From the NCBI GenBank assembly GCA_020632515.1, contig JACKFK010000004.1, positions 192,068 to 256,067 on the forward strand: a DNA stretch of 64,000 bases, written 5' to 3'. Below are positions 20,676-43,491 of this stretch, piece by piece. The translations under genes and the position numbers were made by a program. The stretch's first letter is position 1, and each line of letters starts with the position of its first letter. Origin of the DNA: Candidatus Omnitrophota bacterium (GTDB lineage Bacteria; Omnitrophota; Gorgyraeia; Zapsychrales; Zapsychraceae). The notes beneath the pieces were generated by a model. The model did no database searches, was not told where the DNA came from, and saw only the letters and a program-made list of their open reading frames with translations.

Positions 20676-20880
20676 GTCAATAAGTTGCTAGAACAAGTCA
20701 CAAAGTCACAAAGTCAGCTATCAGTCATCAGCGTTCAGCTATCAGAAAGTATAGTCTCCTGTCGCCAGGATACAGTGACCAGTGAAAAAGTTACAAAGCC
20801 ACAAAGTCGCAGATATTTTGTAATCTAGCAACTTTATGACACGGTGACTTTGCAACATTGTGACTTTATAACTTTTAAAT
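20676..20880 (+). repeat. intergenic repeat mosaic S1 (contains empty IS target site)
   Basis: Contains TAAGTTGCTAGAA (20681-20693), 2 x GTCACAAA (20697-20712) and 5 x CAGNNNT heptamers (20715-20749). Also contains hairpin GTCTCCTGTCGCCAGGATAC (20754-20773) and inverted GTGAC boxes up to the ATG. Confidence 0.9.
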
Positions 20881-22098
20881 ATGAATAAAACATTACAACA
20901 ACTTTATCAGTATGTGAAACAGGAAAATTTTTCCGGCTGGGATCCTTTTGACGGTTTAAACAGCGTTTATTTTAAGGAAAGCTTTTTTTATAAAAGTGAA
21001 TTTTTGCGTTTGTGCTGGATTCAACTTTTTAAACAGTCTCCTTTGAATTTACGTTCTGCCTTGAAGGTGCCGAAAAGTTTAAATCCTAAAGGGGCAGCGT
21101 TATTTCTTTCCGGATTAGTAAATTTGCATGAAGCCACGGCTGAACAACACTATTTAACAGACGCGCAAGAGCTATTTCAACAATTGATACGTTTGCAGCT
21201 TAACACGAAAACAGGTATTGGCTGGGGGTATAATTTTGATTGGCAGGCAAAGGCTTTTTTTGTGCCCGAAGGCACGGCTAATGTGGTGACAACAGTTTTT
21301 GTGGGGCAGGCATTGCTGGATTATTGGAAATGGGCGGATCAAAAGCAACGTGAGGAAATTAAAAATATCATTTTGGGTGTGGTTAATTTTATCTATAATG
21401 AAATGATCATTTGGCAAACAGAGAGCCAGTTATGTTTTGCCTATATACCGCAGAAAAAAACAGAAGTCCATAACGCGAATCTAATGACGGCTGCTTTTTT
21501 AGCGCGGGTGTTGACTTTTTCAGATATTAAAAAGAGTATCCCGCTTGATTTAAAGGCTCTTATAATTAAAGCGGTAGAATTTTCGACGGAAGATATTGAC
21601 GATGATGGGTATTGGCCGTATGGCACCATGGATCATCATCGGTGGATGGATAATTTTCATACAGCTTTTAATCTGCAGGCATTACTGCAAATAAAAGATT
21701 CTTTAAAATTAACAGATTATGATAATACGATTGAACAAGTCTATCATTATTACATTTGGGAACTTTTTTTAGAAGATAGCCGGCCTAAATATTATCATAA
21801 TAAATTATTTCCGGTGGATATTCACACCATCGCTGAAGCGATTATTTTGTTAACACAAGTATTGTCAAAAAAATATAACAATCGTGATGGAGAAAATATT
21901 TTTACCCAGCAGAATATCTCTCAATCTAAGGAATTGCTAAAGAATTTACAACAATATGTGGAAGATGAATTTTTTAATGAGCAGGGATATTTTTATTATC
22001 AGCAAGGTAAGTATTTAAAAAACAAAATTCCTTATATGCGCTGGAGCCAGGCGTGGATGTTTAAAGCGCTGGCGGTGCGAGAAAAGAGACAGGCTTAG
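20881..22098 (+). CDS. hypothetical protein, probably alpha/alpha-barrel glycan-modifying enzyme
   Basis: No catalytic motif recognised. Aromatic-rich helical repeats (GIGWGYNFDWQ, DDDGYWPYG, HRWMDNFHTAF) resemble (alpha/alpha)6 epimerase/lyase-like proteins found in polysaccharide loci. Confidence 0.35.
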   Translation: MNKTLQQLYQYVKQENFSGWDPFDGLNSVYFKESFFYKSEFLRLCWIQLFKQSPLNLRSALKVPKSLNPKGAALFLSGLVNLHEATAEQHYLTDAQELFQQLIRLQLNTKTGIGWGYNFDWQAKAFFVPEGTANVVTTVFVGQALLDYWKWADQKQREEIKNIILGVVNFIYNEMIIWQTESQLCFAYIPQKKTEVHNANLMTAAFLARVLTFSDIKKSIPLDLKALIIKAVEFSTEDIDDDGYWPYGTMDHHRWMDNFHTAFNLQALLQIKDSLKLTDYDNTIEQVYHYYIWELFLEDSRPKYYHNKLFPVDIHTIAEAIILLTQVLSKKYNNRDGENIFTQQNISQSKELLKNLQQYVEDEFFNEQGYFYYQQGKYLKNKIPYMRWSQAWMFKALAVREKRQA

Positions 22099-22299
22099 CT
22101 TTCAGATATCAGCTATCAGAAAGAAGTCGTAACAGCTGATGACTGACAGCTGCGAAGCCAATAACTGATATGGTGACTTTGTGGCTAGAGTATTAGATTT
22201 GTATTGATGTGATCTTGCGACTTTCTGAAAGCTGACAGCTGACAGCTAAGAATCGGATAACTAACACGGTGACCTGGCAACTTTGTAACTTTTATTATT
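22099..22299 (+). repeat. intergenic repeat mosaic S2
   Basis: CAGNNNT heptamers, a degenerate GTGAC-box unit (GGTGACTTTGTGGCTAGAGTATTAGATTTG...), CTGACAG inverse heptamers and AAGAATCGGATAACTAACACGGTGAC. Confidence 0.85.
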
Positions 22300-23061
22300 A
22301 TGATTATTCCAACTAACAAACAGAGAATTCGTTTCTTCGGCGGGTATATTGATCCTCTTACCATGGAGGAAACCTTAAATTGTGTCGAAGAAATCATCCG
22401 CCGCCGGATTATGACCCAGCATGTGGTCATAAACGTGGCGAAATTGGTGATGATGCAGAAAGATGGGAATCTGCGGGAGGCTGTGAATTCGTGCCGGTTA
22501 ATTAACTGTGACGGCGCCGGGATTTTGTGGGCTGCACGGTTGTTAGGATTTAAAATACCCGAGCGGGTGGCTGGAATTGATCTAATGCTGAATCTGGTGA
22601 AATTAGCCGCGGAAAAAAAATTCAGAATTTTTCTTTTAGGCGCGACGAAAGAGATTTGTCTGAGAGTTGAACATAAATTTCAACAGCAGTATCCGGGGAT
22701 TCAGATTGTAGGTTGTCAGGATGGATATTTTAAAAAAGAGGAAGAGCTGACGGTTGTGGAAAAAATTAAAGACTCTTGTGCTGAGATTTTATTTGTGGCG
22801 TTGCCTAGTCCGAAAAAGGAAATCTTTCTGAATAAATATATCCAGCAAATGCAAGTTCCGTTTGTTATGGGGGTGGGTGGTAGTTTTGATGTAGTAGCAG
22901 GTAAGGTCAAACGGGCGCCGAAGTGGATGCAAGATTTTGGATTGGAATGGTTTTACCGGATGATCAGCGAGCCGGGACGGATGTGGAAAAGATATTTAAC
23001 AACGAATACTGTTTTTGCCTGGATGGTTTTAAAAGCATTGGTAACGGGGAAAAAGAATTAA
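22300..23061 (+). CDS. WecG/TagA/CpsF-family glycosyltransferase (GT26)
   Basis: FFGGYIDPLTMEETL...INCDGAGILWAARLLG...ERVAGIDLM...FRIFLLGA are typical of the family. Confidence 0.85.
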   Translation: MIIPTNKQRIRFFGGYIDPLTMEETLNCVEEIIRRRIMTQHVVINVAKLVMMQKDGNLREAVNSCRLINCDGAGILWAARLLGFKIPERVAGIDLMLNLVKLAAEKKFRIFLLGATKEICLRVEHKFQQQYPGIQIVGCQDGYFKKEEELTVVEKIKDSCAEILFVALPSPKKEIFLNKYIQQMQVPFVMGVGGSFDVVAGKVKRAPKWMQDFGLEWFYRMISEPGRMWKRYLTTNTVFAWMVLKALVTGKKN

Positions 23062-23303
23062 AAGTCACATTGTTACCAGGTCACAAGGTCACCGTGTCCG
23101 AGCGGAAAATTAGCATTACAACTTTGTGACTAGAGCGTTAGATTTGTTTTGCTGTGACCTTGTAATTTTCTGATCGCTGAACGCTGACAGCTGAAATCTA
23201 AGAACCGGATAACTGACGTTGTGACATTGTGGCTAAAGCCTCGGATTTGTTTTACTGTAACATTGTGACTTTTAGAAATACATAATTTATTAAAGAGGAC
23301 AAT
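23062..23303 (+). repeat. intergenic repeat mosaic S3
   Basis: GTCACA boxes, two degenerate GTGAC-box units (…TAGAGCGTTAGATTTG…, …AAGCCTCGGATTTG…), and CTGAACGCTGACAGCTGAAATCTAAGAACCGGATAACTGAC. Confidence 0.85.
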
Positions 23304-24539
23304 ATGACAACAGAGAAATCTATGATGAAAAATTTTAAACAATCGCCGGTGGGCAAATCCATCGGTGTGTTCGTGAAATCTTTAAAACATCGCCCTTTTT
23401 ATAACGGGCATTGTAAAACGTTGCAAAAAGATCTCTTTTTTTCACCTAAGACGTATTATCCGAAAATTGTGGCTGATAGTATCCAGCAGCGACGGATTCA
23501 TCTTGATGAAACCATAAATTGGCTTTGCCGCGGACAAGATGCGAATCAGGATGGCGGGGTGGCGGTCGGGTATGGATTTCGTCAAGGATGGGGAGCGTCC
23601 TACCCGGAAACAACTGGTTACATTATTGAAACTTTTTACGAGTACGCGCAGCTAACTGGAGACGATCAATACCGCGCCCGCGCGCTAAAAATGGCGCAAT
23701 GGTTATTAAAGGTTCAAATGGAAAACGGCGCGTATCAAGGTTTTACTATTTCCGATAAAAAAGGCCCTGTGGTCTTTAATACCGGACAGATTATCTTTGG
23801 CTTGTTGAAAACGGCTTTGGAAACCCATGATGAAAAATTTTTAGAGGCTGCGCAGCGGGCTGGTGATTGGCTTGTAAATGTGCAAGACGCCAACGGCGCG
23901 TGGAGCCGGTACACATATAATGATTTCGCGCACGCGTATCACGCGCGGGTCGCCTGGCCGCTTCTTGAGTTGTATAAAATCACAAAAAAGGAATCTTATA
24001 AAACCGCGGCGATTCGAAATTGTGAATGGATTTTAACACTGCAGGATTCTAACGGCTGGTACCATCAAAACAGTTTTTTTAAAACAACGAACCCATTTAC
24101 GCATAATATTGTTTATACCACTCGGGGGATTTTTGAATCCGGCATGATTCTTAACGAAGAACACTACATTGCCTCGGCGGAAAAAGTTCTTAAGCCGTTA
24201 ATGGATTCCTTCGAACAAAAGAAATATCTTTGTGGTGAATTTAATGAAAAATGGGAATCTTCAGCTCGGTACAGTTGTTTAACCGGGAATTCGCAATTGG
24301 CTGTTTGTCTGTTTAAGTTTTATAAATTAAGAAACAAACAAGAATATCTCACCGCGGCTAAGAAGTTAAACCGTTATAATATGGCCGCGCAGGACATTGT
24401 TTCCTCAAATCCGGGAATTAAAGGCGGTATAAAAGGATCTGTGCCGGTATGGGGTGATTATATGAGCTTTTTCTGTCCGAATTGGGCTGCTAAATTCTTC
24501 GCCGACGCCCTGATGCAGGAAGTGTCAGTTTCAATCTGA
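23304..24539 (+). CDS. alpha/alpha-toroid protein with prenyltransferase/squalene-cyclase-like repeats
   Basis: Three QxxNG[AW][WY] repeats (KVQMENGAY, NVQDANGAW, TLQDSNGWY) about 50 aa apart. Good RBS AAAGAGGA. Confidence 0.45.
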   Translation: MTTEKSMMKNFKQSPVGKSIGVFVKSLKHRPFYNGHCKTLQKDLFFSPKTYYPKIVADSIQQRRIHLDETINWLCRGQDANQDGGVAVGYGFRQGWGASYPETTGYIIETFYEYAQLTGDDQYRARALKMAQWLLKVQMENGAYQGFTISDKKGPVVFNTGQIIFGLLKTALETHDEKFLEAAQRAGDWLVNVQDANGAWSRYTYNDFAHAYHARVAWPLLELYKITKKESYKTAAIRNCEWILTLQDSNGWYHQNSFFKTTNPFTHNIVYTTRGIFESGMILNEEHYIASAEKVLKPLMDSFEQKKYLCGEFNEKWESSARYSCLTGNSQLAVCLFKFYKLRNKQEYLTAAKKLNRYNMAAQDIVSSNPGIKGGIKGSVPVWGDYMSFFCPNWAAKFFADALMQEVSVSI

Positions 24540-25101: not shown

Positions 25102-26250
25102 ATGAAACGAACTAAAATTATTCTTGTCGCCGGAGCCCGGCCTAATTTTATGAAAATCGCGCCGTTGATGCGTGAATTTAAAAAACAAAAAAAATATTTT
25201 AACGCGAAGCTTTTGCACACCGGCCAGCATTACGATGTCAAAATGTCCGATGTATTTTTTAAGGAATTAAACATTCCGAAACCGGATATTTATTTAGGGG
25301 TTGGTTCTGGCTCGCACGCCGAGCAAACCGCGAAGATTATGGTTGAGTTTGAAAAGGTTGTCTTAAAAGAAAAGCCGGACATGGTCCTTGTTGTGGGTGA
25401 TGTCAATTCTACTATTGCTTGTTCCATGGTGGCCAGTAAACTGCATGTGAAGGTGATTCATGTGGAGGCAGGGTTGCGCAGTTTTGATCGAAAAATGCCG
25501 GAAGAAATTAACCGCGTGTTAACGGATTCGATATCCGATTATTTGTTTGTAACCGAGGAGAGTGGCATAGAGAATCTTAAGAACGAAGGAGTATCGCGCA
25601 AGAAAATTCATTTTGTCGGTAATACCATGATCGATACATTACTTTATAATATGGATAAGATTGATGCGTCGAGGATTTTGCATAAACTCAATTCTCAAAA
25701 ATTCTCTATTCGGCAGAACGCGTCAACAACGCCGATTCATTGGCGGGCGTATTCAATGTTGACATTGCATCGGCCCAGCAATGTCGATCATAAAGCGACA
25801 ATGATGGAAATATTTGAAATTATCAAATATATAAGTGCAAAATTGCCGATTATTTATCCTATTCATCCACGCACGAGAAAAATGATGGAAAAGCACGGGT
25901 TATTGAAAAAGTTTGAGAATCTAAAAAATCTTATTATGGTGGAGCCGTTGGGGTATGTGGATTTTCTTTTCTTAGTAAAAAACGCGCGTTTTGTCTTAAC
26001 TGATTCCGGCGGGATTCAGGAGGAAAGTACAGTTTTAAAAGTTCCGTGTTTAACAATGCGGGAAAATACAGAGCGTCCTGTAACAATGACCGTCGGCACC
26101 AATATCCTTGTTGGGCGAAATAAAATGAAATTATTCCGAGAAGTTAATAATATTTTAAAGAACCGTTTGGTTAAAGGACGGATTCCGAAATATTGGGACG
26201 GCTGCGCTGCCCAGCGGATTGTCAAAGTATTGAAAGCTAGTGGTAAGTGA
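25102..26250 (+). CDS. wecB: UDP-N-acetylglucosamine 2-epimerase (non-hydrolysing)
   Basis: KIILVAGARPNFMKIAPL...LHTGQHYD...MSDVFFKELNIPKPDIYLGVGSGSHAEQTAKIM...DSGGIQEE. Confidence 0.92.
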   Translation: MKRTKIILVAGARPNFMKIAPLMREFKKQKKYFNAKLLHTGQHYDVKMSDVFFKELNIPKPDIYLGVGSGSHAEQTAKIMVEFEKVVLKEKPDMVLVVGDVNSTIACSMVASKLHVKVIHVEAGLRSFDRKMPEEINRVLTDSISDYLFVTEESGIENLKNEGVSRKKIHFVGNTMIDTLLYNMDKIDASRILHKLNSQKFSIRQNASTTPIHWRAYSMLTLHRPSNVDHKATMMEIFEIIKYISAKLPIIYPIHPRTRKMMEKHGLLKKFENLKNLIMVEPLGYVDFLFLVKNARFVLTDSGGIQEESTVLKVPCLTMRENTERPVTMTVGTNILVGRNKMKLFREVNNILKNRLVKGRIPKYWDGCAAQRIVKVLKASGK

Positions 26251-26483
26251 TAAGTCAGAAACAAGTCATAAGGTCACAATGTCACAATGTCACAATGTCA
26301 CAAAGAGGCTAAGTCACAAGGTCATAAAGCTTCCGTTTTCTTTTTTTCTGGTCACCAGCGACTGGAGACCGGAGACTGATACACGGTGGCTTTGTGACAA
26401 AAGTTTCAGATATGCGCTGGTGTGACGTTGTGACTTTTACACGGTGACTTGGTGACTATTAGCTATCAGTCATCAGCCTTCAG
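26251..26483 (+). repeat. intergenic repeat mosaic S4a (left of IS copy 1)
   Basis: GTGGTAA/GTGATAA heptamers start inside the wecB 3' end (26240-26260). Eight phased 8-mers occupy 26265-26328. These are followed by the AAGCTTCCGTTTTCTTTTTTTCTGGTCACCAGCGACTGGAGAC module, one GTGAC-box unit and CAGNNNT heptamers. Confidence 0.9.
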
Positions 26484-26568
26484 TTAAAATGAATAATTGT
26501 GTCCTCCCATCCTAGGAGTTAACCTAGGATGAGAAAGAATAATAACCCAAAAAAGGAGGACACAAGTT

Positions 26569-27600
26569 ATGATAACAATCGGCGTTGATTTTCACAAGCA
26601 AACATCAAGTTACCATGTTTTAGATGAAAACGGAAAATTTCTTAAACGTTGTAAACTAAAAAATAATGAAGAAAATATCCGTAAATTTATTCAAAGTTTT
26701 CAAGGCCCAAAACAAGTCGCTATGGAAGCCACTCGTAATTGGGGAATATTTTTCGAATGTATCAAAGATTTAGTTGACGATTTTCAATTAGGACATCCTA
26801 AGAAAATGAAAGCCATAACAGACTCTGAAACAAAGAACGACAAGCATGACGCTCAAATGATTGCCAAACTAACTTACAGTAAGTTTTTACCTAAGGCTCA
26901 TGTAAGTCATTTAGACAATCGCCAATTACGAAGCCTTTTACGCTATCGTCATTTTCTTGTTAAGCAACGCCGCGCGATTCGTCAACAAGTTCAAACGTTA
27001 ATTGATCGTAATCTCTGGCCGTGTGATCGTCCCAAAGCGTTCAAAGATATCTTTTGTAAAAAAGGCATTCAATGGTTAAAAAGCATTACATTACATGAAA
27101 GAGAACGATTCATTCTCGATCAAGCATTAGAATCTTTTGAAGACTTAAGTCGGCGCATTCTTCAAATCGAAGATTACGTTAATCAACAAACAGCTGAACT
27201 TAAAGGCTTAGAATATTTACGAACAACGCCCGGCTTTAAAACAAGCCGTGTTAACGCCTATATTGTCTTATTAGAAACCGATGACATTCATCGTTTTCGT
27301 AAAGCGAACGGCTTTGCTCATTACGCCGGCTTAGTTCCACGTGAACATTCTTCAGGTTCAAAACAACGTCACGGCCGATTAGTTAAAAATGCTAATATGC
27401 ATTTAAGAACCGCTTTTATTGAATCAACTTTAGCCGCTATTCGTTTAGACAAAGGTCTTAAAAGTTATTACAAGAAAGTTAAAAAATCCAGCGGATCTGG
27501 CTCCGCCATCATTGCCTGTGCCCGTAAATTATCTTATGCTGTTTATCATGTTTTAAAAGATCAACGCCCTTATCGGGCTGAATCACCTGTAGCCGCCTGA
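26569..27600 (+). CDS. IS110-family (DEDD / IS116-IS110-IS902) transposase
   Basis: N-terminal ITIGVDFHKQ (DEDD RuvC-like). C-terminal YAGLVPREHSSGSKQRHGRLVKNANMHLRTAF. RBS AAAGGAGG. Confidence 0.92.
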   Translation: MITIGVDFHKQTSSYHVLDENGKFLKRCKLKNNEENIRKFIQSFQGPKQVAMEATRNWGIFFECIKDLVDDFQLGHPKKMKAITDSETKNDKHDAQMIAKLTYSKFLPKAHVSHLDNRQLRSLLRYRHFLVKQRRAIRQQVQTLIDRNLWPCDRPKAFKDIFCKKGIQWLKSITLHERERFILDQALESFEDLSRRILQIEDYVNQQTAELKGLEYLRTTPGFKTSRVNAYIVLLETDDIHRFRKANGFAHYAGLVPREHSSGSKQRHGRLVKNANMHLRTAFIESTLAAIRLDKGLKSYYKKVKKSSGSGSAIIACARKLSYAVYHVLKDQRPYRAESPVAA

Positions 27601-27780
27601 TAGCTGCCGCCTGTTTGCTTTTGCAATCGAGGTCTCTCTCAGTTTCGCGGTACTTGGTGATCAATTTTATTTTGAGTGTCTTTTTGACGACTCCAATACT
27701 AGCTTATTCACATTTTTTTGTAGTGACTTTGCGTTCTTTAAACATTTTTTTCGAACTATTGACACAATTATTCATACTAG
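27601..27780 (+). ncRNA. candidate transposon-encoded guide RNA region (bridge/seek-RNA-like), copy 1
   Basis: A 180-nt non-coding tail lies 3' of the transposase, versus only 85 nt at the 5' end. Internal ATACTAGCT (27696-27704) equals the right junction (27774-27782). Internal GCGTTCTTTAAACAT (27731-27745) resembles the left junction GCNTTCAGTTAAAATG. Confidence 0.35.
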
Positions 27781-28077: not shown

Positions 28078-28677
28078 ATGAACGAAAACATTATCCCTCA
28101 TGAAGCAATTATTAAAAAACAAGACCGCTGGAGACTGAATCAGCATAAATCTGTTATCCTTTGGTTTACCGGGTTATCCGGATCCGGAAAATCCACCTTA
28201 TCGCATAAGTTAGAAGCAGCTTTGTATGAACGCGGTGTACGCACGTATGTTCTTGACGGCGATAATGTCCGTAAGGGCATGAATAAAGATTTAGGGTTTG
28301 CCCCGGAAGACCGCAAAGAAAATATCCGTCGTATCGGCGAGATGACCAAGCTTTTTATGGACTGCGGCATCATTATGATGACGGCGTTTATTTCTCCTTA
28401 CCGTGAAGACCGGGCCATGGTGCGTTCGTTGGTGGAGAAGAGTGAATTTGTGGAAGTTTATATGAAATGTTCCGTGGATGTTTGCGAGCGTCGTGATGTC
28501 AAAGGTCTTTACAAAAAAGCCCGTGCCGGTGAGATTAAGAATTTTACCGGAATCAGCGCGCCTTACGAAGAACCGCAAAATCCGGAAATTGTCATCGAAT
28601 CCGATGCAATGACCCTGGACGAAAGCGTTGCAAAGATCGTTCAGTATTTGGAAGAAAAAGGGTGCTTGAAGTGCTAA
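28078..28677 (+). CDS. cysC: adenylylsulfate (APS) kinase
   Basis: VILWFTGLSGSGKSTLS P-loop and YVLDGDNVRKGMNKDLGFAPEDRKENIRRIGE. Confidence 0.95.
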   Translation: MNENIIPHEAIIKKQDRWRLNQHKSVILWFTGLSGSGKSTLSHKLEAALYERGVRTYVLDGDNVRKGMNKDLGFAPEDRKENIRRIGEMTKLFMDCGIIMMTAFISPYREDRAMVRSLVEKSEFVEVYMKCSVDVCERRDVKGLYKKARAGEIKNFTGISAPYEEPQNPEIVIESDAMTLDESVAKIVQYLEEKGCLKC

Positions 28678-28888
28678 GTGATAAGTGGTAAGTGGTAAGT
28701 GGTAAGTCTGAAACAAGTCACAAAGTCGCAAAGTCACAAGGTCACAAGGTCATCGTGTCAGCTATCAGCTTTCAGCGATCAGAAAAAAATATACTCTCCG
28801 GCCGCCAGGAGTCAGTGCTGTTGAGCAGCAACCGATTCAACTTCGTAAGTTGAACTAGGTTTGCTTTGATAAAATAAAGAAATTAATA
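28678..28888 (+). repeat. intergenic repeat mosaic S5
   Basis: The heptamer array GTGCTAA GTGATAA GTGGTAA x3 (28671-28705) includes the cysC stop. Then four 8-mers (28717-28748), CAGNNNT heptamers, a degenerate CCAGGAG hairpin and the CGATTCAACTT hairpin. Confidence 0.9.
28830..28862 (+). repeat. 33-nt hairpin motif, copy 1
   Basis: AACCGATTCAACTTCGTAAGTTGAACTAGGTTT (stem TCAACTT/AAGTTGA). Confidence 0.85.
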
Positions 28889-29188: not shown

Positions 29189-29556
29189 GATTAAAACATC
29201 AAGATGCGGTAAAGGCTTTGTCTACGTTTACCGAGATTTTGGGAGAACCTTATTCCGTTATTATCCGTGATGCTAGTATTCAACGCTTTGAATATACCTT
29301 TGAAGCTTTTTGGAAATATTTTAAAGAATATTTAAAAATCAAAGAAGGGATTATGGCGGCTTCTCCTAAAGCAGTGTTTCGCGAGTTGCTGGCAATCCAA
29401 TTCGTTACAGAAGAACAGGCTGTCGCATTATTAGAGATGACTGACCGGCGTAATGACACGGTCCATACTTATAAAGAAGCTGTGGCGAAGATTATTTACG
29501 AAAAGTTACAAGGTTATTGCCAACTCATGAGAGGTGTTTTAAATATTGGTTGTTAA
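29176..29556 (+). CDS. hepT: HEPN-domain protein (HI0074-family NTase substrate-binding protein; HepT-type toxin)
   Basis: Rx4H motif RRNDTVH. Size and pairing with MNT fit the family. Confidence 0.75.
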   Translation: MERLRLKHQDAVKALSTFTEILGEPYSVIIRDASIQRFEYTFEAFWKYFKEYLKIKEGIMAASPKAVFRELLAIQFVTEEQAVALLEMTDRRNDTVHTYKEAVAKIIYEKLQGYCQLMRGVLNIGC

Positions 29557-29771
29557 GTTGCTCGTTGCTAGAAAAAGTCACAAGGTCACAAAGTCACAAA
29601 GTCACAAGGTCATAAAGCTTCCGTTTTCTTTTTTTCTGGTCACCAGCGACTGGAGACTGGAGACTGATACACGGTGGCTTGGTGACACAAGTTTCAGATT
29701 TGAGTTGTTTTGACGTTGTGACTTTTACACGATGACTTGGTGACTATTAGCTATCAGTCATCAGCATTCAG
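29557..29771 (+). repeat. intergenic repeat mosaic S6a (left of IS copy 2)
   Basis: TAAGTTGCT(CGTTGCT)AGAAAAA, five 8-mers (29577-29616), the AAGCTTCCG...GGTCACCAGCGACTGGAGAC module, one GTGAC-box unit and heptamers. Confidence 0.9.
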
Positions 29772-29856
29772 TTAAAATGAATAATTGTGTCCTCCCATCC
29801 TAGGAGTTAACCTAGGATGAGAAAGAATAATAACCCAAAAAAGGAGGACACAAGTT

Positions 29857-30888
29857 ATGATAACAATCGGCGTTGATTTTCACAAGCAAACATCAAGTTA
29901 CCATGTTTTAGATGAAAACGGAAAATTTCTTAAACGTTGTAAACTAAAAAATAATGAAGAAAATATCCGTAAATTTATTCAAAGTTTTCAAGGCCCAAAA
30001 CAAGTCGCTATGGAAGCCACTCGTAATTGGGGAATATTTTTCGAATGTATCAAAGATTTAGTTGACGATTTTCAATTAGGACATCCTAAGAAAATGAAAG
30101 CCATAACAGACTCTGAAACAAAGAACGACAAGCATGACGCTCAAATGATTGCCAAACTAACTTACAGTAAGTTTTTACCTAAGGCTCATGTAAGTCATTT
30201 AGACAATCGCCAATTACGAAGCCTTTTACGCTATCGTCATTTTCTTGTTAAGCAACGCCGCGCGATTCGTCAACAAGTTCAAACGTTAATTGATCGTAAT
30301 CTCTGGCCGTGTGATCGTCCCAAAGCGTTCAAAGATATCTTTTGTAAAAAAGGCATTCAATGGTTAAAAAGCATTACATTACATGAAAGAGAACGATTCA
30401 TTCTCGATCAAGCATTAGAATCTTTTGAAGACTTAAGTCGGCGCATTCTTCAAATCGAAGATTACGTTAATCAACAAACAGCTGAACTTAAAGGCTTAGA
30501 ATATTTACGAACAACGCCCGGCTTTAAAACAAGCCGTGTTAACGCCTATATTGTCTTATTAGAAACCGATGACATTCATCGTTTTCGTAAAGCGAACGGC
30601 TTTGCTCATTACGCCGGCTTAGTTCCACGTGAACATTCTTCAGGTTCAAAACAACGTCACGGCCGATTAGTTAAAAATGCTAATATGCATTTAAGAACCG
30701 CTTTTATTGAATCAACTTTAGCCGCTATTCGTTTAGACAAAGGTCTTAAAAGTTATTACAAGAAAGTTAAAAAATCCAGCGGATCTGGCTCCGCCATCAT
30801 TGCCTGTGCCCGTAAATTATCTTATGCTGTTTATCATGTTTTAAAAGATCAACGCCCTTATCGGGCTGAATCACCTGTAGCCGCCTGA
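29857..30888 (+). CDS. IS110-family transposase (identical 343-aa product)
   Basis: Same translation as 26569..27600. Confidence 0.92.
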   Translation: MITIGVDFHKQTSSYHVLDENGKFLKRCKLKNNEENIRKFIQSFQGPKQVAMEATRNWGIFFECIKDLVDDFQLGHPKKMKAITDSETKNDKHDAQMIAKLTYSKFLPKAHVSHLDNRQLRSLLRYRHFLVKQRRAIRQQVQTLIDRNLWPCDRPKAFKDIFCKKGIQWLKSITLHERERFILDQALESFEDLSRRILQIEDYVNQQTAELKGLEYLRTTPGFKTSRVNAYIVLLETDDIHRFRKANGFAHYAGLVPREHSSGSKQRHGRLVKNANMHLRTAFIESTLAAIRLDKGLKSYYKKVKKSSGSGSAIIACARKLSYAVYHVLKDQRPYRAESPVAA

Positions 30889-31068
30889 TAGCTGCCGCCT
30901 GTTTGCTTTTGCAATCGAGGTCTCTCTCAGTTTCGCGGTACTTGGTGATCAATTTTATTTTGAGTGTCTTTTTGACGACTCCAATACTAGCTTATTCACA
31001 TTTTTTTGTAGTGACTTTGCGTTCTTTAAACATTTTTTTCGAACTATTGACACAATTATTCATACTAG
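30889..31068 (+). ncRNA. candidate transposon-encoded guide RNA region, copy 2
   Basis: Identical to 27601-27780. Confidence 0.35.
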
Positions 31069-32326: not shown

Positions 32327-32355
32327 TTGACAATGTGGATATATGGTATTATAGT
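32327..32355 (+). promoter_or_regulatory. sigma70-type promoter of AAA+ ATPase 1
   Basis: TTGACA-17 nt-TATAGT. The GTG at 32335 used by the ORF track lies inside the spacer. Confidence 0.65.
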
Positions 32356-32391
32356 TATACTGCAAATGATATATATGAAATTATGGTAAAC

Positions 32392-33696
32392 ATGATTATT
32401 CAACGTGATATTATACACAAAATTAAACCTTTTTTAGAGCGCAGGGAATGTTTAGCCCTTATCGGCCCGCGGCAGACAGGAAAAACTACTCTTTTACAGC
32501 TAATTACAGACTATTTATATAAAGAAAAAAATGTTGATAAGGAATTGGTAAAGAGGATCAGTTTTGAAGACCGGAAACTGTTGTTTCAATTTGAAAAAGA
32601 TCCTTGTGAATTTGTTAGATCTTATTGGCCGGGGGCTGCCAAGCAAACGTTTTACTTTATGATTGATGAGTTTCAATACGCCAGCGAAGGTGGACAAAAG
32701 TTAAAACTGATTTATGACACCTTTACCAATCTTAAGCTATTGATTACAGGATCATCATCTCTGGATCTGCGGGCGCAGGTGGGAAAATATATGGTAGGAC
32801 GGATATTGAGTTTTTATATTTATCCGTTTAATTTTCATGAAATCTTAAAAACGAGGTCTTCTCGTTTAGAACGCGCTTACGCACGGCAAAACAAACAAAT
32901 TAAAAATTGGCTCTTTGAAAATCAACCCCTGGATTTGAAAAAAGGTGATGATTTGTTACACGAGGAAATGACAAAAGCCTTTGAAGATTACTGTGTTTGG
33001 GGCGGGTACCCGCAAATTGTCCTTACAGAAGATATTGAACAAAGAAAGAAAGTTTTAAATGATCTTTATAACAATTATCTTTTAAAAGACATTAAAACAT
33101 CATTAGAGTTGGCCACAGAAAAAGAGCTTTATAAACTTTCGCAATATATCGCGACACAGGTAGGACAGATTACGGTTTATCAGAATTTATCTCAGGCCTC
33201 AGGGCTTGAGTACCGGACTTTAAAAAAGCATTTATCGATTTTAGAAGAAACATTTATTATTAAAAGTGTAACGCCGTTTTTCAGAAATAAACAGAAAGAG
33301 CTGTCGCGGAATCCTAAAATATTTTTCTTGGATATGGGGTTTCGCAACGCGCTTATCGACGATATCAATGATCTGGAAAAAAGGCCCGATGCCGGGAACA
33401 TGGTGGAAAATACGGTATATGTACAGCTTTTAAAAAACTTTATACAGGCTGATAAATTAAATTTTTACCGGACTAAAATGGGCTCAGAAATTGATTTTAT
33501 CACATGGAATAACCACGCCATTATTCCAATGGAAGTTAAATATAAAGTTTTTAAACAAGAGCAGATTTCTAAAGGATTTCGTAGTTTTATTGAGCAGTTT
33601 AAGCCGGAGAAGGCCATTGTTTGGACAAAGAACTTCTGGGGGATGCTCGAAGAAAATGGAACGCAGATTTTGTTTGCACCGGGGTATTATTGTTAA
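32392..33696 (+). CDS. AAA+ ATPase, COG1373 type (AAA_14 + DUF4143), paralog 1
   Basis: Walker A GPRQTGKTTLLQ and Walker B FYFMIDEFQY. The start was moved to ATG 32392 (32383 is also possible) because of the upstream promoter. Confidence 0.8.
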   Translation: MIIQRDIIHKIKPFLERRECLALIGPRQTGKTTLLQLITDYLYKEKNVDKELVKRISFEDRKLLFQFEKDPCEFVRSYWPGAAKQTFYFMIDEFQYASEGGQKLKLIYDTFTNLKLLITGSSSLDLRAQVGKYMVGRILSFYIYPFNFHEILKTRSSRLERAYARQNKQIKNWLFENQPLDLKKGDDLLHEEMTKAFEDYCVWGGYPQIVLTEDIEQRKKVLNDLYNNYLLKDIKTSLELATEKELYKLSQYIATQVGQITVYQNLSQASGLEYRTLKKHLSILEETFIIKSVTPFFRNKQKELSRNPKIFFLDMGFRNALIDDINDLEKRPDAGNMVENTVYVQLLKNFIQADKLNFYRTKMGSEIDFITWNNHAIIPMEVKYKVFKQEQISKGFRSFIEQFKPEKAIVWTKNFWGMLEENGTQILFAPGYYC

Positions 33697-34078
33697 GTTG
33701 CTAGAAAAGATCGCAAAGTGACCTTGTGACTTTCTGAAAGTTGACGACTGAAAGTGAAAGCTAAGAGTCGGACAACTGACACGGTGCCATTGTGACAAAA
33801 GTTTCAGATTTGAGTTGTTTTGACGCTGTGGCTTTTACACGGTGACTTTGTGACACAAGTTTCAGATTTGGGTTGTTGTGACATTGTGACTTGTCGATAG
33901 CTAAGAACCGGATAACTGACACGGTGCCATTGTGACAAGAGTTTCAGATTTGAGCTGTTGTGACCTTGTGACTTGTTGACAGCTGACATCTGAATTGATT
34001 AAAACCGTAAACAAACCTCCGAGGTTTGTTTGTGGTTAAGAACCGGATAACTGACAATTCGACATTTCAGATTGTTAT
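33697..34078 (+). repeat. intergenic repeat mosaic S8
   Basis: TAAGTTGCTAGAAAA at the stop and inverse heptamers. Three 58-nt GTGAC-box units at 33779-33836, 33837-33894 and 33919-33976. The 31-nt palindrome is also present. Confidence 0.92.
34005..34035 (+). repeat. 31-nt palindromic hairpin element, copy b
   Basis: CCGTAAACAAACCTC-C-GAGGTTTGTTTGTGG. The two non-Watson-Crick positions are G.U-compatible on the + strand only. Confidence 0.85.
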
Positions 34079-34107
34079 TTGACAAAATGACTATCATACT
34101 GTATAAT
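34079..34107 (+). promoter_or_regulatory. consensus sigma70-type promoter of AAA+ ATPase 2
   Basis: TTGACA-17 nt-TATAAT, both hexamers perfect. Confidence 0.75.
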
Positions 34108-34150: not shown

Positions 34151-35350
34151 ATGATTGATTTTAAGGCCATCTTTGAATATGACCGTTTAGCCAAAGAAGA
34201 AGGAAAGAAATATCAGAAACGACGATTTTTTTATAATGAAATCGTGCAAACGCAGGGAAAACATTTCACTGGTATTCTGGGTGCCCGCGGAGTAGGTAAA
34301 ACAATTTTATTAAAACAGCTGGCTTGTGAACAGCCGCAGTCACTTTATGTTTCTCTGGATGCGGTTGATGTTGATCTTTTTGAACTGGCTAAGAAAGCCA
34401 AAGAAGAGTTTAAGATTCAATCGCTGTTGCTGGATGAGGTGCACTTTCATCCGCGATTCCAGGAAAATCTGAAGAAAATTTATGATTTTTTGGATATTCA
34501 AGTAATTTTTACCAGCTCTATTGCCTTAGCGTTAATTGAATCGCAATATGATCTTTCACGAAGGGTTTTGTTAAAGAAGTTATATCCGTTTTCATTTCGT
34601 GAATATCTTTATTTTAAATATGACGTGGAATTTCCTTCGCTGACATTTGATCAGATTATTCAAAAGGAAGTAGATTCAAAATTCTTTTCCTACAGTCAGA
34701 ATTTTAGTGATTATCTGCAAGGAGGTATTTTCCCTTTTGCCATTGAAGAACCGTTTGTTTTGGATTTGCTTAAGAATGTGGCTGCTAAAGTTATTCGTAA
34801 AGATATTCCCCGCGTCACTGATATCAGTGTATCGGAAATTGAAATTATCGAAAAAGTGCTTCAGTTTATCGGAACATCCGGGATTGATGGAATTAATTAT
34901 TCATCGATCTCACAGAACTGCGGCATTACTAAATATAAAGCGCAGCAATATGTCGAGTTGTTAGAAAAAGCGTTTATTATTCATCAGATTTTTCCTAAAG
35001 GAACAAATGTGCTGAAAGAGCCGAAGATTTTAATGGCTGTTCCCTATCGCTTGCTTTACACGGATTTTCAAAGGGCTTTAGGAGGATTAAGAGAAGATTT
35101 TCTTGTGGAAATGATGCGTTCTTTGGGGAAAGAAATTTATTATTTGAAATCAACCCGCGGCCAAAAAACACCGGATTATTTGTTAACACATCAACAGAAG
35201 AATGTTGTTGTTGAAGTCGGGGGAAAAGGAAAAGGCCGACAGCAGTTTAAAGGGATTGTGCCTGACCAGAAAATCATCGCTGCCGACGCGGTAACATTTG
35301 ATGAATTGCGCCGTCCGTTATTTTTGTTTGGATTTTTAAGTGATAAATAA
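34151..35350 (+). CDS. AAA+ ATPase, COG1373 type, paralog 2
   Basis: Walker A GARGVGKTILLKQ, Walker B LLLDEVHF, and LYPFSFREYL as in the other paralogs. Confidence 0.75.
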   Translation: MIDFKAIFEYDRLAKEEGKKYQKRRFFYNEIVQTQGKHFTGILGARGVGKTILLKQLACEQPQSLYVSLDAVDVDLFELAKKAKEEFKIQSLLLDEVHFHPRFQENLKKIYDFLDIQVIFTSSIALALIESQYDLSRRVLLKKLYPFSFREYLYFKYDVEFPSLTFDQIIQKEVDSKFFSYSQNFSDYLQGGIFPFAIEEPFVLDLLKNVAAKVIRKDIPRVTDISVSEIEIIEKVLQFIGTSGIDGINYSSISQNCGITKYKAQQYVELLEKAFIIHQIFPKGTNVLKEPKILMAVPYRLLYTDFQRALGGLREDFLVEMMRSLGKEIYYLKSTRGQKTPDYLLTHQQKNVVVEVGGKGKGRQQFKGIVPDQKIIAADAVTFDELRRPLFLFGFLSDK

Positions 35351-35648
35351 GTCTCCTGTCGCCAGGAGACAGTGATCAGTAAGAAACAACCGATTCAACT
35401 TCGTAAGTTGAACTAGGTTTACTTGTGACTTTCTGAAATCTGACAGCTGAAAGCTAAGAACCGGATAACTGACACGGTGACATTGTGACAAGAGTTTCAG
35501 ATTTGAGTTGTTTTGACGTTGTGACTTTTACACGGTGACTTGGTGACACAAGTTTCAGATTTGAGCTGTTGTGACTTTTTGACAGCTACGCACCGGATAA
35601 CTGACACAGTGACATTGTGACTTTTGTACGAAACATGAAAGGATTTTT
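35351..35648 (+). repeat. intergenic repeat mosaic S9
   Basis: Hairpin GTCTCCTGTCGCCAGGAGAC (35351-35370), the 33-nt hairpin, inverse heptamers and two tandem GTGAC-box units, ending in GTGACATTGTGAC just before the gmd RBS. Confidence 0.9.
35388..35420 (+). repeat. 33-nt hairpin motif, copy 2
   Basis: AACCGATTCAACTTCGTAAGTTGAACTAGGTTT, identical to copy 1. Confidence 0.85.
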
Positions 35649-36737
35649 ATGACAAAAAAAGCGCTTATAACCGGCGTGACCGGACAAGATGGGGCTTATT
35701 TAGCAGAATTATTATTAGATAAAGGCTATGAGGTGCACGGCATCAAACGCCGCAGTTCATTATTTAACACGCACCGGATTGATCATCTTTATAGAGATTT
35801 ACACGAACGCGGGGTAAAGTTTAAACTTCATTACGGCGATATGACGGATTCCACCAATTTGATCCGCATTATTCAGGAAGTTCAGCCGGATGAGATTTAT
35901 AATTTAGCCGCGCAATCGCATGTTCAAGTTTCGTTCGAAACCCCGGAATACACCGCCAATGCCGACGCGCTGGGCACCTTGCGTGTTTTAGAGGCGATTC
36001 GTATTCTGAAACTGGAAAAGAAAACTAAAATTTATCAAGCGTCCACGTCGGAGCTTTACGGCAAGGTGCAAGAGATTCCTCAGCGGGAAACCACACCGTT
36101 TTATCCGCGCAGTCCCTATGGTGTGGCCAAACTCTACGCGTATTGGATCACGGTCAATTATCGCGAGGCATACGGTATGTTTGCTTGCAACGGAATTTTG
36201 TTCAACCACGAATCACCGATCCGTGGAGAAACCTTTGTTACGCGTAAAATCACCCGCGCGGCCAGCCGGATCAAATGCGGCTTGCAGCAAAAACTATATT
36301 TAGGAAATCTTGATGCCAAACGCGATTGGGGTCATGCTAAGGATTATGTGGAAGGCATGTGGCGTGTCTTGCAGCAAAAGCAGCCGGATGATTATGTATT
36401 GGCGACCGGCAAAACCCAGTCGGTGCGGGAGTTTGTGGAATTTGTTTTCACGGAGCTTGGCATCAGTATTAAGTGGAAGGGTAAAGGCATTCATGAAAAA
36501 GGCATTGATCAAGAAAGCGGCAAGAGTTTGATTGAAGTGGATAAAAAGTATTTTCGTCCGACGGAGGTGGATATCCTTTTAGGGGATGCGTCCAAGGCGC
36601 GCCGAAAATTAAAGTGGAAACCGAAATACACCATGCAGGAATTAGCTAAAGAAATGGTGGCCGCGGATTTGGCCGAGGCCGAAAAAGAAGCGCATCTGAA
36701 AGGAAAAGGCTATTCGGTGTTGGAGTTTAATGAATAA
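35649..36737 (+). CDS. gmd: GDP-mannose 4,6-dehydratase
   Basis: [35 protein letters not shown]...STSELYG...[10 protein letters not shown]. Confidence 0.95.
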
Positions 36738-36850
36738 AAGTCGCAAAGTCACCGTGTCAGCTTTCAGCTATCAGTCTTCAGCGATCAGAAAACCACAAAC
36801 AAACCTCCGAGGTTTGTTTGTGGTTAAGAACCGAATAACTGACTTACTAT
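36738..36850 (+). repeat. intergenic repeat mosaic S10
   Basis: GTCGCAAAGTCAC, CAGNNNT heptamers, the 31-nt palindrome and TTAAGAACCGAATAACTGAC. Confidence 0.9.
36793..36823 (+). repeat. 31-nt palindromic hairpin element, copy c
   Basis: CCACAAACAAACCT-CCG-AGGTTTGTTTGTGG, a perfect 14-bp stem. Confidence 0.85.
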
Positions 36851-37898: not shown

Positions 37899-37931
37899 AA
37901 CCGATTCAACTTCGTAAGTTGAACTAGGTTT
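37899..37931 (+). repeat. 33-nt hairpin motif, copy 3 (mosaic S11)
   Basis: AACCGATTCAACTTCGTAAGTTGAACTAGGTTT lies 4 nt after the fcl stop. Confidence 0.85.
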
Positions 37932-37939: not shown

Positions 37940-37968
37940 TTGACATGTCGTATAAAATAATGTATATT
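37940..37968 (+). promoter_or_regulatory. sigma70-type promoter of AAA+ ATPase 3 (leaderless or near-leaderless mRNA)
   Basis: TTGACA-17 nt-TATATT. The -10 box ends 5 nt before ATG 37974 and 8 nt before ATG 37977. Confidence 0.65.
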
Positions 37969-39565: not shown

Positions 39566-39594
39566 TTGTCTAATGAGCGTTAATAGTGTATAAT
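39566..39594 (+). promoter_or_regulatory. sigma70-type promoter of abiEi-abiEii
   Basis: TTGTCT-17 nt-TATAAT. Confidence 0.6.
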
Positions 39595-39634: not shown

Positions 39635-40267
39635 ATGAAAGTTTTGACAGAGCTAATTTTAGATAATTATAAAAGTGATATTCTAACCACTGCAGATGTG
39701 GTCACTTTGTCTAAAGGGTCTTCGGATCGACGTTACGGTCTGGTTAAGCGGGCTTTGGCGGCAGAGGAGATTATCCAAATTCGAAGAGGCCTGTACTATT
39801 TAGCAAAGAAGTATCAGCGTGGGCCAATGAATTTGTTTGCTTTAGCCCAGAGAATCTATGGACCGTCATATATTAGTTTTGAATCGGCTTTATCGTATCA
39901 TGGCTGGATTCCGGAGGCTGTTTATCTTACGGCGAGTGCCAGTATTCGTAAAGCAATAAGATACACAACCCCGTTAGGGATTTTTGATTATAAGCGGATT
40001 CCTTGCGCAGATTTTTTCTATGAGGTTAATCGGATTCAAAATGAAGCAGAGGATATTTTTTTTATGGCTTCACCGATTAGAGCTTTGGTTGACTATATTT
40101 ATGTTTATAAAAAAGATTGGCCGGATTTAAAGGCTATTGCGCAAGACTTGAGAATTGAACCGGAAAATTTTAATGAAATTAAAAAAGAAGCATTGCAAGG
40201 TTTTAAGGAAAATTTTAAAAGCCGCAGAGTTAAACGGTTTATTAAGATGCTGGAAGGGAACGTTTGA
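39635..40267 (+). CDS. abiEi: AbiEi-family antitoxin / transcriptional regulator
   Basis: N-terminal wHTH-like LTTADVVTLSKGSSDRRYGLVKRALAAEEIIQIRRGLYYL. Overlaps the downstream AbiEii gene by 4 nt. Confidence 0.75.
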   Translation: MKVLTELILDNYKSDILTTADVVTLSKGSSDRRYGLVKRALAAEEIIQIRRGLYYLAKKYQRGPMNLFALAQRIYGPSYISFESALSYHGWIPEAVYLTASASIRKAIRYTTPLGIFDYKRIPCADFFYEVNRIQNEAEDIFFMASPIRALVDYIYVYKKDWPDLKAIAQDLRIEPENFNEIKKEALQGFKENFKSRRVKRFIKMLEGNV

Positions 40268-41133
40268 GCGTCAAAATTATTCAAGAACGTTTAAATCTTT
40301 ATCAATGCGCTTCCGTGCAGGAAGAAGCTCAAGCTTTACGGGAAATAACCCAGGAAGTAGCATTGGCTGCGCTCGCGCGAACGGATTTTTTTAAGTATGC
40401 AGCGTTTCATGGAGGAACCTGTTTGCGGATTCTTTACGGGCTTAACCGGTTTTCAGAAGATCTAGATTTTACGCTAAAGCAGCCTGACAACGGTTTTCAA
40501 GTTGAATCATATATTAGTAATTTAGCTGTTGAATTTAAAGCTTTTGGTTTTGAGTTGGAGGTGATCGATCGTTCAGAAGCAGAACTTCCCGTAAAAAAAG
40601 TATTTCTAAAGGATAATTCAATCGGGAAAGTATTAAAATTAAAACATTTAAAAAGTGACCGCTCGGAAAAGAAGATCAAGATTAAACTAGAGATTGATAC
40701 TAATCCGCCGGATCATGCCGGATACGAAAGTAAAATGGTTGATTTCCCTTTTATTTTTTCACTTACGGCATTGGATCGAAGTAGTTTATTTGCCGGTAAG
40801 ATCCATGCGCTGCTTTCACGGATTTATGTTAAAGGACGTGATTGGTATGATTTTCTGTGGTATCTCCGTAATAAAGATTTCATCAATCTTAAATATCTGT
40901 CCAGTGCTTTAGATCAGCAGGGGCCATGGCAGGGACAGAAATTAACGGTTGATCAGAATTGGGTTGTAGAAGCGTTGACGGAAAAAATCAAAAATCTGGA
41001 TTGGGATAATGCGATTAAAGATGTGCTTAAATTTATTAAACCGTTAGAAGTTAAATCTGTGGAGCTGTGGAATAAAGAGCTGTTTTTAGCACAGTTAGAG
41101 AAATATCTAAAAGAGAAAAAAGATCACAACTGA
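40264..41133 (+). CDS. abiEii: AbiEii/AbiGii-family nucleotidyltransferase toxin
   Basis: FHGGTCLRILYGLNRFSEDLDF NTase motif. TTG start overlaps the abiEi stop. Confidence 0.85.
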   Translation: MSVKIIQERLNLYQCASVQEEAQALREITQEVALAALARTDFFKYAAFHGGTCLRILYGLNRFSEDLDFTLKQPDNGFQVESYISNLAVEFKAFGFELEVIDRSEAELPVKKVFLKDNSIGKVLKLKHLKSDRSEKKIKIKLEIDTNPPDHAGYESKMVDFPFIFSLTALDRSSLFAGKIHALLSRIYVKGRDWYDFLWYLRNKDFINLKYLSSALDQQGPWQGQKLTVDQNWVVEALTEKIKNLDWDNAIKDVLKFIKPLEVKSVELWNKELFLAQLEKYLKEKKDHN

Positions 41134-43443: not shown

Positions 43444-43491
43444 TGAAGGTAAAGGAAATTTAGATTGATTTAATATTAAAAAATAAATTTT

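Follow-up and report, generated by a model that had tools for sequence, protein, structure and literature searches.

Repeat mosaic at gene ends

The window analyzed here is a stretch of 64,000 nucleotides of Candidatus Omnitrophota bacterium (assembly GCA_020632515.1, contig JACKFK010000004.1, positions 192,068 to 256,067 of the forward strand). Its subject is a mosaic of short repeats that fills spacers between genes and begins in or at the stop codons of the upstream genes. The mosaic is confined to the spacers from about 20.6 to 41.8 kb of the window, nearly every one of which carries it; beyond this zone, the spacers are short and without repeats. Nearly all genes of the window lie on the + strand, the only minus-strand gene being an AAA_14-DUF4143 ATPase at 59218-60399. 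The mosaic zone is a polysaccharide locus (CapK-like ligase, WecG, wecB, cysC, cysQ, gmd, and fcl) with interspersed accessory genes, comprising MNT/HEPN and AbiEi/AbiEii toxin-antitoxin pairs, three AAA_14-DUF4143 ATPases, and two copies of an IS110-family element. Among the open reading frames (ORFs), the CapK-like gene ends at 20675, wecB at 26250, cysC at 28677, the HEPN-like gene at 29556, and AAA_14 nos. 1 and 2 at 33696 and 35350. An earlier sequence-only reading of this DNA had described repeat modules at these ends; the sequences and coordinates it quoted are all correct, and its gene identities hold.

The gene cysC encodes an adenylyl-sulfate kinase of 199 aa (28078-28677, + strand), and its last codons, AAG TGC followed by TAA, resemble a heptamer unit. 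The stop (28675-28677) is the TAA of the first unit of module A, the array GTGCTAA GTGATAA GTGGTAA x3 (28671-28705, + strand), which has stops in each of the three sense frames and lacks them on the reverse strand. The linker GTCTGAAACAA (28706-28716, + strand) joins it to the octamer array of module C, composed of AAGTCACA and variants (28715-28752, + strand), and this junction is the same as that following the heptamers of wecB. Module D, made of TCAGCTA heptamers and variants (28758-28782, + strand), comes next and is followed by an A-run; neither module C nor module D has sense-frame stops. The spacer continues with a degenerate copy of hairpin E (28793-28816, + strand; consensus GTCTCCTGTCGCCAGGAGAC) and the 32-nt hairpin F, AACCGATTCAACTTCGTAAGTTGAACTAGGTT (28830-28861, + strand), of which identical copies lie at 35388-35419 and 37899-37930. 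An MNT/HEPN toxin-antitoxin pair is located 3' of this spacer. Module A at cysC lies 183 nt, and the wecB units 315 nt, from the next start. The cysC spacer contains forward arrays only, and its fold is not beyond chance (z = +0.41).

At wecB, two module A units, GTGGTAA GTGATAA (26240-26253, + strand), span the end of the gene. The wecB codons AGT GGT AAG contain the first unit, and the TGA stop and the next TAA come from the second, so that 26240-26260 reads GTGGTAAGTGATAAGTCAGAA. Eight coding nucleotides (GTGGTAAG) plus the TGA form the exact GTGGTAA/GTGATAA unit pair, which is in register with the A-to-C junction GTC[A/T]GAAACAAGTCA that also follows the cysC array. Given this register, we calculate the probability of a chance match as about 4^-8. 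An octamer array follows 3' of wecB (26261-26303, + strand). The wecB end and its repeats are base-identical in the short-read assembly GCA_020430025.1 and in a Logan contig, as far as each contig reaches; because they are reproduced in independent data, they are not an assembly artifact.

Module B provides further examples. Its copy TAAGTTGCTCGTTGCTAGAA (29554-29573, + strand) contributes the TAA stop of the HEPN-like (NTase_sub_bind/HepT) gene, and TAAGTTGCTAGAA at 33694-33706 (+ strand) contributes that of the AAA_14-DUF4143 ATPase at 32335-33696. Positions 29550-29562 and 33690-33702, the ends of these two unrelated genes, both read TTGTTAAGTTGCT. Another copy of TAAGTTGCTAGAA (20681-20693, + strand) begins 5 nt past the stop of the CapK/PaaK-like ligase (20675), with the complementary TCTAGCAACTT further 3' in the same spacer. 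The weakest case is the end of the second AAA_14-DUF4143 gene, where a degenerate single module A unit, GTGATAA plus ATAA, occupies 35340-35350 (+ strand; 35339-35350 reads AGTGATAAATAA) and hairpin E directly follows the stop.

Other stops are located in arms of inverted repeats or in linkers, all on the + strand. The TAG stop of the ORF at 20881-22098 is contained in the left arm of a spacer-spanning inverted repeat (22094-22123, CTTAGC...), which pairs with 22221-22250 (...GCTAAG) over 30 nt with 87% complementarity. Similarly, the TAA stop of the WecG/TagA-family gene is part of the left arm TAAAAGTCACATTGTTAC (23059-23076), pairing with GTAACATTGTGACTTTTA (23257-23274) over 18 nt with 94% complementarity. 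RNA folding of these two spacers yields z = -3.47 (22085-22302) and z = -3.40 (23050-23306), with the stop in the basal stem. Wherever both arms exist, RNA or DNA can probably form a stem across the spacer, with the stop at its base. The gmd stop is the TAA of the octamer-array edge TAAAAGTCGC (36735-36752), and the TGA stop of the AbiEii gene (40264-41133) lies in AACTGAC (41128-41134), the core of the recurrent linker GGATAACTGAC.

To locate the left mosaic edge objectively, we took the first 12-mer (with at most 1 mismatch) that recurs in another spacer and measured its offset from the last base of the stop. Coverage maps of k-mers were dropped as an edge test because short k-mers recur in the AT-rich window and in paralogous genes, and the 12-mer test was used instead. 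An autocorrelation scan for period-7/8 arrays at ORF ends was discarded, since its threshold was too strict and it caught one window array. At 13 mosaic-bearing gene ends, the edge lies from -20 to +13 nt of the stop, in agreement with the claim that the modules begin inside or at stop codons. The offset is -7 nt at cysC, the HEPN-like gene, and AAA_14 no. 1, -13 nt at AAA_14 no. 2, -20 nt at wecB, -15 nt at AbiEii, -2 nt at cysQ, and -1 nt at the gene ending at 22098. It is positive at fcl (+2 nt), the CapK-like gene (+5 nt), and the gene ending at 39233 (+13 nt).

At the two ends at 23061 and 36737, the 12-mer matches are AT-rich and were judged to be chance, and the edge TAAAAGTCRC starts at the first base of the stop. 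This motif has 11 copies against 0.33 expected. Eight, on the - strand, form right-arm ends at a distance from stops; the other three are on the + strand, where the mosaic ones (23059 and 36735) supply the TAA of a gene and that at 9767 lies within a coding sequence. Since the eight right-arm copies occur away from stops and both + strand mosaic copies are stops, the stop triplet belongs to the repeat. CTTAGC at 22094 likewise mirrors the recurrent GCTAAG of the reverse arrays. At several edges (TAAAAGTCRC, CTTAGC, and AACTGAC), the stop triplet is therefore part of the repeat and not of the gene.

Module maps of 15 spacers reveal an extragenic mosaic of multiple motifs in conserved order and with strand polarity. 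Module A (GTGRTAA) or module B (TAAGTTGCT..AGAA), where either is present, directly follows the stop and precedes modules C and D and the hairpins E, F, and J. Module C, the (AAGTCACA)n octamer, and module D, the (TCAGCTA)n heptamer, make up most of the gene-proximal mosaic. The downstream half contains reverse-complement arrays (CTGAAAG/CTGACAG)n, the linker CTAAGAACCGGATAACTGAC, and (GTGACNTT)n with 58-nt units, before the next gene. This polar, roughly nested-palindromic order is common to all 15 mapped spacers. The strand bias is pronounced, with GTCRCAANGTCRCAA occurring 25 times on the + strand and 5 times on the - strand, CACGGTGACNTTGTGAC 8 times versus once, and GTGRTAAGT 7 times versus 0. 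The heptamers are far above chance: with at most 1 mismatch allowed, GTGRTAAGTGRTAA has 5 matches, every one of them on the + strand, where 0.06 would be expected. The signal of TAAGTTGCT by itself is weak (3 matches against 0.62 expected, with 3 reached in 4/100 shuffles). The right edges of the mosaic stop 2-120 nt short of the next start; this interval accommodates ribosome-binding sites and strong promoter-like sites.

Stop content and protein C-termini

The modules had been described as stop-rich in all three frames. This applies to the GTGRTAA arrays, which have a stop in every sense frame (first stops at nt 19/5/12 for GTGGTAA and 16/2/9 for GTGATAA) and none on the reverse strand. It does not apply to the octamer (AAGTCACA and variants) and TCAGCTA arrays, in which no sense frame has a stop; their reverse complements have stops. 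All three frames are closed within 21 nt past the stop only at cysC among the 13 mosaic-bearing ends. At the other 12, the longest-open frame extends for 28-202 nt, and for 59-202 nt at 10 of them (wecB 175 nt, the HEPN-like gene 157, cysQ 202, and the gene ending at 39233 120-184). For comparison, the ordinary spacers of the window, leaving aside those that lead directly into the next gene, mostly have all three frames closed within about 70 nt, with a few reaching about 100. Sense-frame stops are scarcer in mosaic spacers than in ordinary ones. The three-frame property is also found in about 48% of random heptamer arrays of like base composition. The "universal translation stop" of the sequence-only reading is not supported; closing all three frames is an incidental property of any non-triplet repeat with one stop triplet.

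The same reading had raised the question of whether native C-termini are truncated or replaced, and the alignment check speaks against truncation. We compared the last aligned residue and protein length with the last profile position and profile length in curated profiles. The alignments reach residue 379/382 of wecB (profile 364/366), 197/199 of cysC (200/202), 264/266 of cysQ (248/250), and 119/126 of the HEPN-like protein (115/123). For cysC, profile NF003013 covers residues 2-197 of 199 with positions 5-200 of 202. Protein lengths agree with the family profiles within 0-3 residues, and because the curated profiles reach the protein ends, the proteins are without truncation. In wecB homologues, conservation ends at RIVKVL, and the variable tail beyond it has about 1-15 residues, a range in which the query tail KASGK is of ordinary length. 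Those of cysC are conserved to YLEEKGYL, followed by 0-10 variable residues; the query tail is GCL-KC, and a terminal Cys like its own is found in no other of the 120 homologues listed. The repeat-derived codons are therefore at most the last 1-3, in nonconserved tails. The AAA_14 "paralogs" nos. 1 and 2 share only 24% identity over 227 aligned residues, which makes their comparison uninformative with regard to a replaced C-terminus. The contig of the nearest wecB orthologue (L120, 66% identity) has compact repeat-free spacers and other neighbor genes.

Related genomes and metagenomes

Two cysC orthologues with 73% identity, on contigs L241 and L242, also end inside arrays, each of a different unit. 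In L241, a ATAAAGGG array of 4 copies at 8-nt spacing begins 8 nt before the cysC TAA. In L242, the array unit is TATAGCG, and a palindrome arm begins 8 nt before the cysC TAG and is 100% complementary over 12 nt to the downstream arm. Together with the wecB unit pair and the TAAAAGTCRC edges, these cases bear out the claim that some genes end inside the modules and that the repeats supply terminal codons and stops. The cysC gene of L243, a close relative of the L242 protein, has no repeat. Both proteins have the same length (204 aa), and they differ in the last two residues and the stop (VI-TAA in L243, SV-TAG in L242). Judged from these sequences, the difference may reflect local overwriting without a change in length; ordinary divergence fits too. 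The L241 and L242 arrays at L241:4608-4648, L241:5796-5904, and L242:4605-4711 have the units ATAAAGGG, GTGTTCA, and TATAGCG, each with its own reverse partner. Since two spacers of L241 differ in unit (ATAAAGGG and GTGTTCA), the arrays suggest local birth and not dispersal from one master copy.

At least 117 loci were found in a GTDB scan with three GTCACAAN units, including many in metagenome-assembled genomes (MAGs) of Omnitrophota, Planctomycetota, and Bacteroidota. The typical form is (GTCACnnn)n-loop-(nnnGTGAC)n, filling short spacers. Among the matches listed, 47 octamer arrays lie within 400 nt of the end of an upstream ORF that is on the same strand and 200 aa or longer, and 11 of these arrays start no more than 5 nt past the stop, where a uniform spread would give about 1.4%. 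A metagenome scan with (GTGRTAA)3 returned at least 120 loci, which span GC contents of 21% to 71% and in some cases include a (YTAYCAC)n partner. Of the listed arrays of at least three units, 38 contain the end of a same-strand ORF of 250 aa or longer or have such an end in the 300 nt upstream; in 27 of these, the ORF end is inside the array or at most 10 nt before it. The stops inside these listed arrays are spread about evenly over the three registers (TGA 5/8/7, TAA 4/2/3). The arrays thus do show a preferred relation to stops, contrary to the refuting case named in the sequence-only reading, and the preference is for adjacency rather than for one frame.

The architecture (7-8-nt unit)n-loop-(reverse-complement unit)n fills spacers from stop to start at loci L003-L119 (e.g., L005, L023, L028, L034, and L089). 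The same periodic-palindrome architecture is seen at metagenome loci L121-L240 (e.g., L125, L149, L202, and L229). Its occurrences cover Omnitrophota, Planctomycetota, Bacteroidota, and many unclassified contigs of all GC contents. Full-text literature searches with the exact array sequences and for Omnitrophota repeats returned nothing relevant.

Accessory elements and flanking regions

Copy 1 of the IS110-family element occupies 26489-27775 (+ strand) and copy 2 occupies 29777-31063, both of them inside a TCAGCTA-type heptamer array. The copies are of equal length (1287 bp) and have the terminal inverted repeats ATGAATAATTGTGTC / GACACAATTATTCAT and the same flanks. Mosaic flanks the duplicated block that contains IS110, and in the short-read assembly, a break falls precisely at the IS110 left end. 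ISPpu9, also of the IS110 family, targets repetitive extragenic palindromic (REP) elements (PMC12288879), and by analogy, the location of the present copies suggests that the heptamer arrays are IS110 target sites.

Hairpin F has further degenerate copies near 58470, 59190, and 60450. It adjoins accessory genes, namely the MNT/HEPN pair and AAA_14-DUF4143 ATPases, including the minus-strand gene 59218-60399, and may mark cassette boundaries. Each accessory gene may be transcribed individually (34079-34107, 32327-32355, 37940-37968, and 39566-39594). Two other regions of the window stand apart from the mosaic. The genes at 42000-52000 are tightly packed and without repeats, and their GC content is 27-33%, versus about 38-43% elsewhere; this block may be a separately acquired piece of the polysaccharide locus. 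An unrelated 205-bp tandem repeat (6341-6974, 3.1 copies, 99% identical) is located in an 826-nt spacer upstream of a polysaccharide flippase-like gene.

Discussion

The principle of stop-overlapping repeats is already known from the TAACTGA repeats of marine Beggiatoaceae, which are intergenic heptamer direct repeats in fixed orientation to genes (MacGregor 2015, PMC4679880). In the forward direction, they contain stops in all three frames and would truncate genes into which they were inserted, which limits overlap with ORF ends to a few codons; 13 BOGUAY ORFs have a stop overlapped by 1-2 TAACTGA repeats (PMC4679880). MacGregor (2015) made the same argument as is made here. Both systems consist of tandem, mostly intergenic heptamers with forward stops in three frames (here at 28671-28705 and 26240-26253). 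They differ in the unit, which is GTGRTAA here, and in the host phylum, here Omnitrophota; the present heptamers are also one layer of a multimodule mosaic. Moreover, TAACTGA sets lie mainly just 5' of starts, whereas the heptamers studied here coincide with the stop of the upstream gene and are separated from the next start by about 180 nt or more. TAACTGA itself occurs in the window only as single copies inside the linker GGATAACTGAC. The linker CCGGATAACTGAC, present at 23205, 33908, 34043, 35461, 35593, and 41301 on the + strand only, holds a single TAACTGA. Because it is never tandem here, the match to the Beggiatoaceae repeat is probably a coincidence.

REPs and bacterial interspersed mosaic elements (BIMEs) of enterobacteria and pseudomonads resemble the present mosaic in being extragenic, mostly 3' of genes, and composed of palindromic and other motifs in conserved order. 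Both are IS110-family targets, as described for ISPpu9 (PMC12288879), with two IS110 copies located in the heptamer array here. A sizable fraction of REPs lies within 15 nt of a stop and affects translation, according to PMC12306157. The blocks found here are, however, 7-8-nt tandem arrays instead of a 20-40-nt palindromic unit, and their arms are periodic and of variable length. Hairpins E and F and the spacer-spanning arms are palindromic structures of the mosaic; the cysC heptamer array has no palindromic partner and does not fold. No REP-associated tyrosine transposase (RAYT, TnpA-REP) was seen among the window ORFs scanned.

Heptamers are the commonest class of long simple sequence repeats in surveys of the Mrazek type (summarized in PMC4679880). 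The short tandemly repeated repetitive (STRR) heptamers of heterocystous cyanobacteria are likewise tandem and enriched in noncoding DNA, and they have been attributed to slippage; their unit sequences and taxa differ from ours. To our knowledge, STRRs have not been described as stop-anchored or as nested forward/reverse arrays. Integron attC sites often contain the stop codon of the cassette ORF. The locus shares with cassette arrays co-oriented genes, imperfect palindromes that may include the stop, and toxin-antitoxin cassettes, but the genes flanked here include ordinary large biosynthetic genes. An integron cassette array was rejected, as there is no IntI/integrase domain in the window ORFs scanned and the spacers are tandem arrays of 80-640 nt, compared with 55-140 nt for attC.

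The spacers of the window share an anatomy and a polarity, overlap terminal codons of proteins of native length, and have junctions in common, and the same habit is seen in other genomes. We propose that the coincidence with stops marks the left boundary of a spacer-filling repeat mosaic grown by slippage and copied between spacers, and we assign this explanation a probability of about 0.6. The arrays would expand by replication slippage and may be copied from spacer to spacer by recombination or gene conversion. Purifying selection would shield the coding sequence only, so that the mosaic could reach the stop and, in proteins with an unconstrained tail, invade the final 1-3 codons. An edge could overlap a gene end only when an in-frame stop is kept; consequently, all surviving stop-overlapping edges would hold TAA, TAG, or TGA. 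The edges that overlap stops are GTGRTAA, TAAGTTGCTAG, TAAAAGTCAC, CTTAGC, and AACTGAC. Their stop content is a matter of survivorship, not of design. Recombination or copying from one spacer to another is favored by the junction GTGGTAAGTC[A/T]GAAACAAGTCA after wecB and cysC, by the sequence TTGTTAAGTTGCT at the ends of two genes that are not related, and by the duplicated block with IS110 and its mosaic flanks.

Several points weigh against this explanation. The strict polarity and conserved order exceed the regularity predicted by simple neutral slippage and hint at a function or a directed process. No relative above 75% protein identity was available both with and without the repeats, and in any single gene, the terminal codons may have been overwritten or may instead have served as seeds of the arrays. 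The survey of this genome covers 64 kb, and the ORFs of the metagenome survey are mechanical calls, some of them spurious in GC-rich contigs. The cysC spacer has neither a reverse arm nor a significant fold, which means that a hairpin role cannot explain module A there.

Among the alternatives, the mosaics or their submodules could be nonautonomous mobile or recombination-site elements that integrate at stops, for example at the TA of TAA or TAG, and carry their own stop so that no fusions arise. The identical module edges at unrelated gene ends are consistent with this idea, as are the arms TAAAAGTCAC...GTGACTTTTA, readable as an inverted repeat flanked by TA, the strong clustering of arrays at stops in many unrelated metagenomic contigs and MAGs, and the concentration of the mosaic among accessory genes (toxin-antitoxin pairs, AAA_14-DUF4143, and IS110). 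Nevertheless, we consider it unlikely. There are no direct target duplications and no constant length, unit numbers vary, and the C-termini are of native length. Apart from IS110, whose own location is inside an array, the window ORFs scanned include no integrase or matching transposase. Spacers of related genomes may each have a unit of their own (L241), which fits local birth better than dispersal. Miniature inverted-repeat transposable elements combine terminal inverted repeats, a target-site duplication, and a defined length; here arms are present, lengths vary, and no flanking duplications were found. The sequence-only reading had favored elements that insert at, or recombine with, gene 3' ends: recombination or copying agrees with the shared junctions, whereas insertion lacks target duplications, a fixed length, and an associated transposase among the features found. 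Its observation is partly confirmed and its interpretation partly supported.

Two functional explanations address what the modules might do at the stop. In the first, stop-rich proximal modules would be selected as back-up translation terminators that catch read-through or frameshifted ribosomes before the structured spacer or the next gene. GTGRTAA units do stop each frame within 21 nt, the (GTGRTAA)n arrays listed from metagenomes adjoin gene ends in the orientation that contains stops, and the reverse arrays (GTGACNTT, CTGAAAG) just 5' of the next start carry TGA in all sense frames. However, only cysC closes three frames within 21 nt while the other ends stay open for longer, the octamer family places a stop-free arm beside the gene, and about 48% of random heptamers share the three-frame property, so we regard this role as very improbable. 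The other explanation, that the arrays are functional RNA or DNA structures anchored on the stop in a REP-like manner, with a periodic hairpin across the spacer modulating translational or transcriptional termination, mRNA stability, or coupling with the next gene, is compatible with the origin by slippage and copying proposed above. We consider it possible, if doubtful, and the most credible of the alternatives in this and the preceding paragraph. It is favored by the stems with the stop at their base (z about -3.4), by the downstream arm of L242 that is 100% complementary over 12 nt to the last cysC codons and stop, by orthologous arrays kept between the related MAGs L034 and L089, and by the recurrence of (unit)n-loop-(reverse unit)n across phyla. 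According to PMC12306157 (citing Liang et al. 2015), ribosomes stall and expression falls when a REP lies within 15 nt of a stop. On the other hand, module A at cysC has neither partner arm nor fold, and a clear reverse partner within 200 nt is found in only 23/126 metagenomic arrays among the matches listed. An intrinsic-terminator scan of the window showed no enrichment of terminator-like sites (21 vs 17.7 expected), and no match to any Rfam 15 family reached its gathering score over the whole window on both strands.

Conclusions

Growth by slippage and copying between spacers would account for a mosaic that runs up to, and slightly into, gene ends. The strict polarity and order, the cross-phylum palindromes, and the orphan forward-only array at cysC leave room for a functional element or directed copying. 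Tentatively, the periodic palindromes could form a phylum-spanning, stop-anchored class that is kept for an action on the terminating ribosome or transcript or is made by dedicated hairpin-directed copying, although we think this rather improbable. If so, the rewriting of C-terminal tails would be a systematic side effect in hosts such as Omnitrophota, Planctomycetota, Bacteroidota, and uncultured soil and sediment bacteria, and the palindromes could serve as a stop-embedded insulator, terminator, or coupling device.

If the pattern is genome-wide, housekeeping genes of little-known phyla would routinely have their last few codons and stop reshaped by simple-repeat dynamics, with consequences for the annotation of C-termini. 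The pattern would also account for short-read assemblies that break at each gene boundary, as exemplified by wecB contigs of about 1.6-1.8 kb in a short-read assembly and in Logan, and elements of the IS110 type would have a plentiful natural supply of target arrays. The periodic hairpins anchored on stops would then be a candidate REP-like post-transcriptional element outside Proteobacteria.

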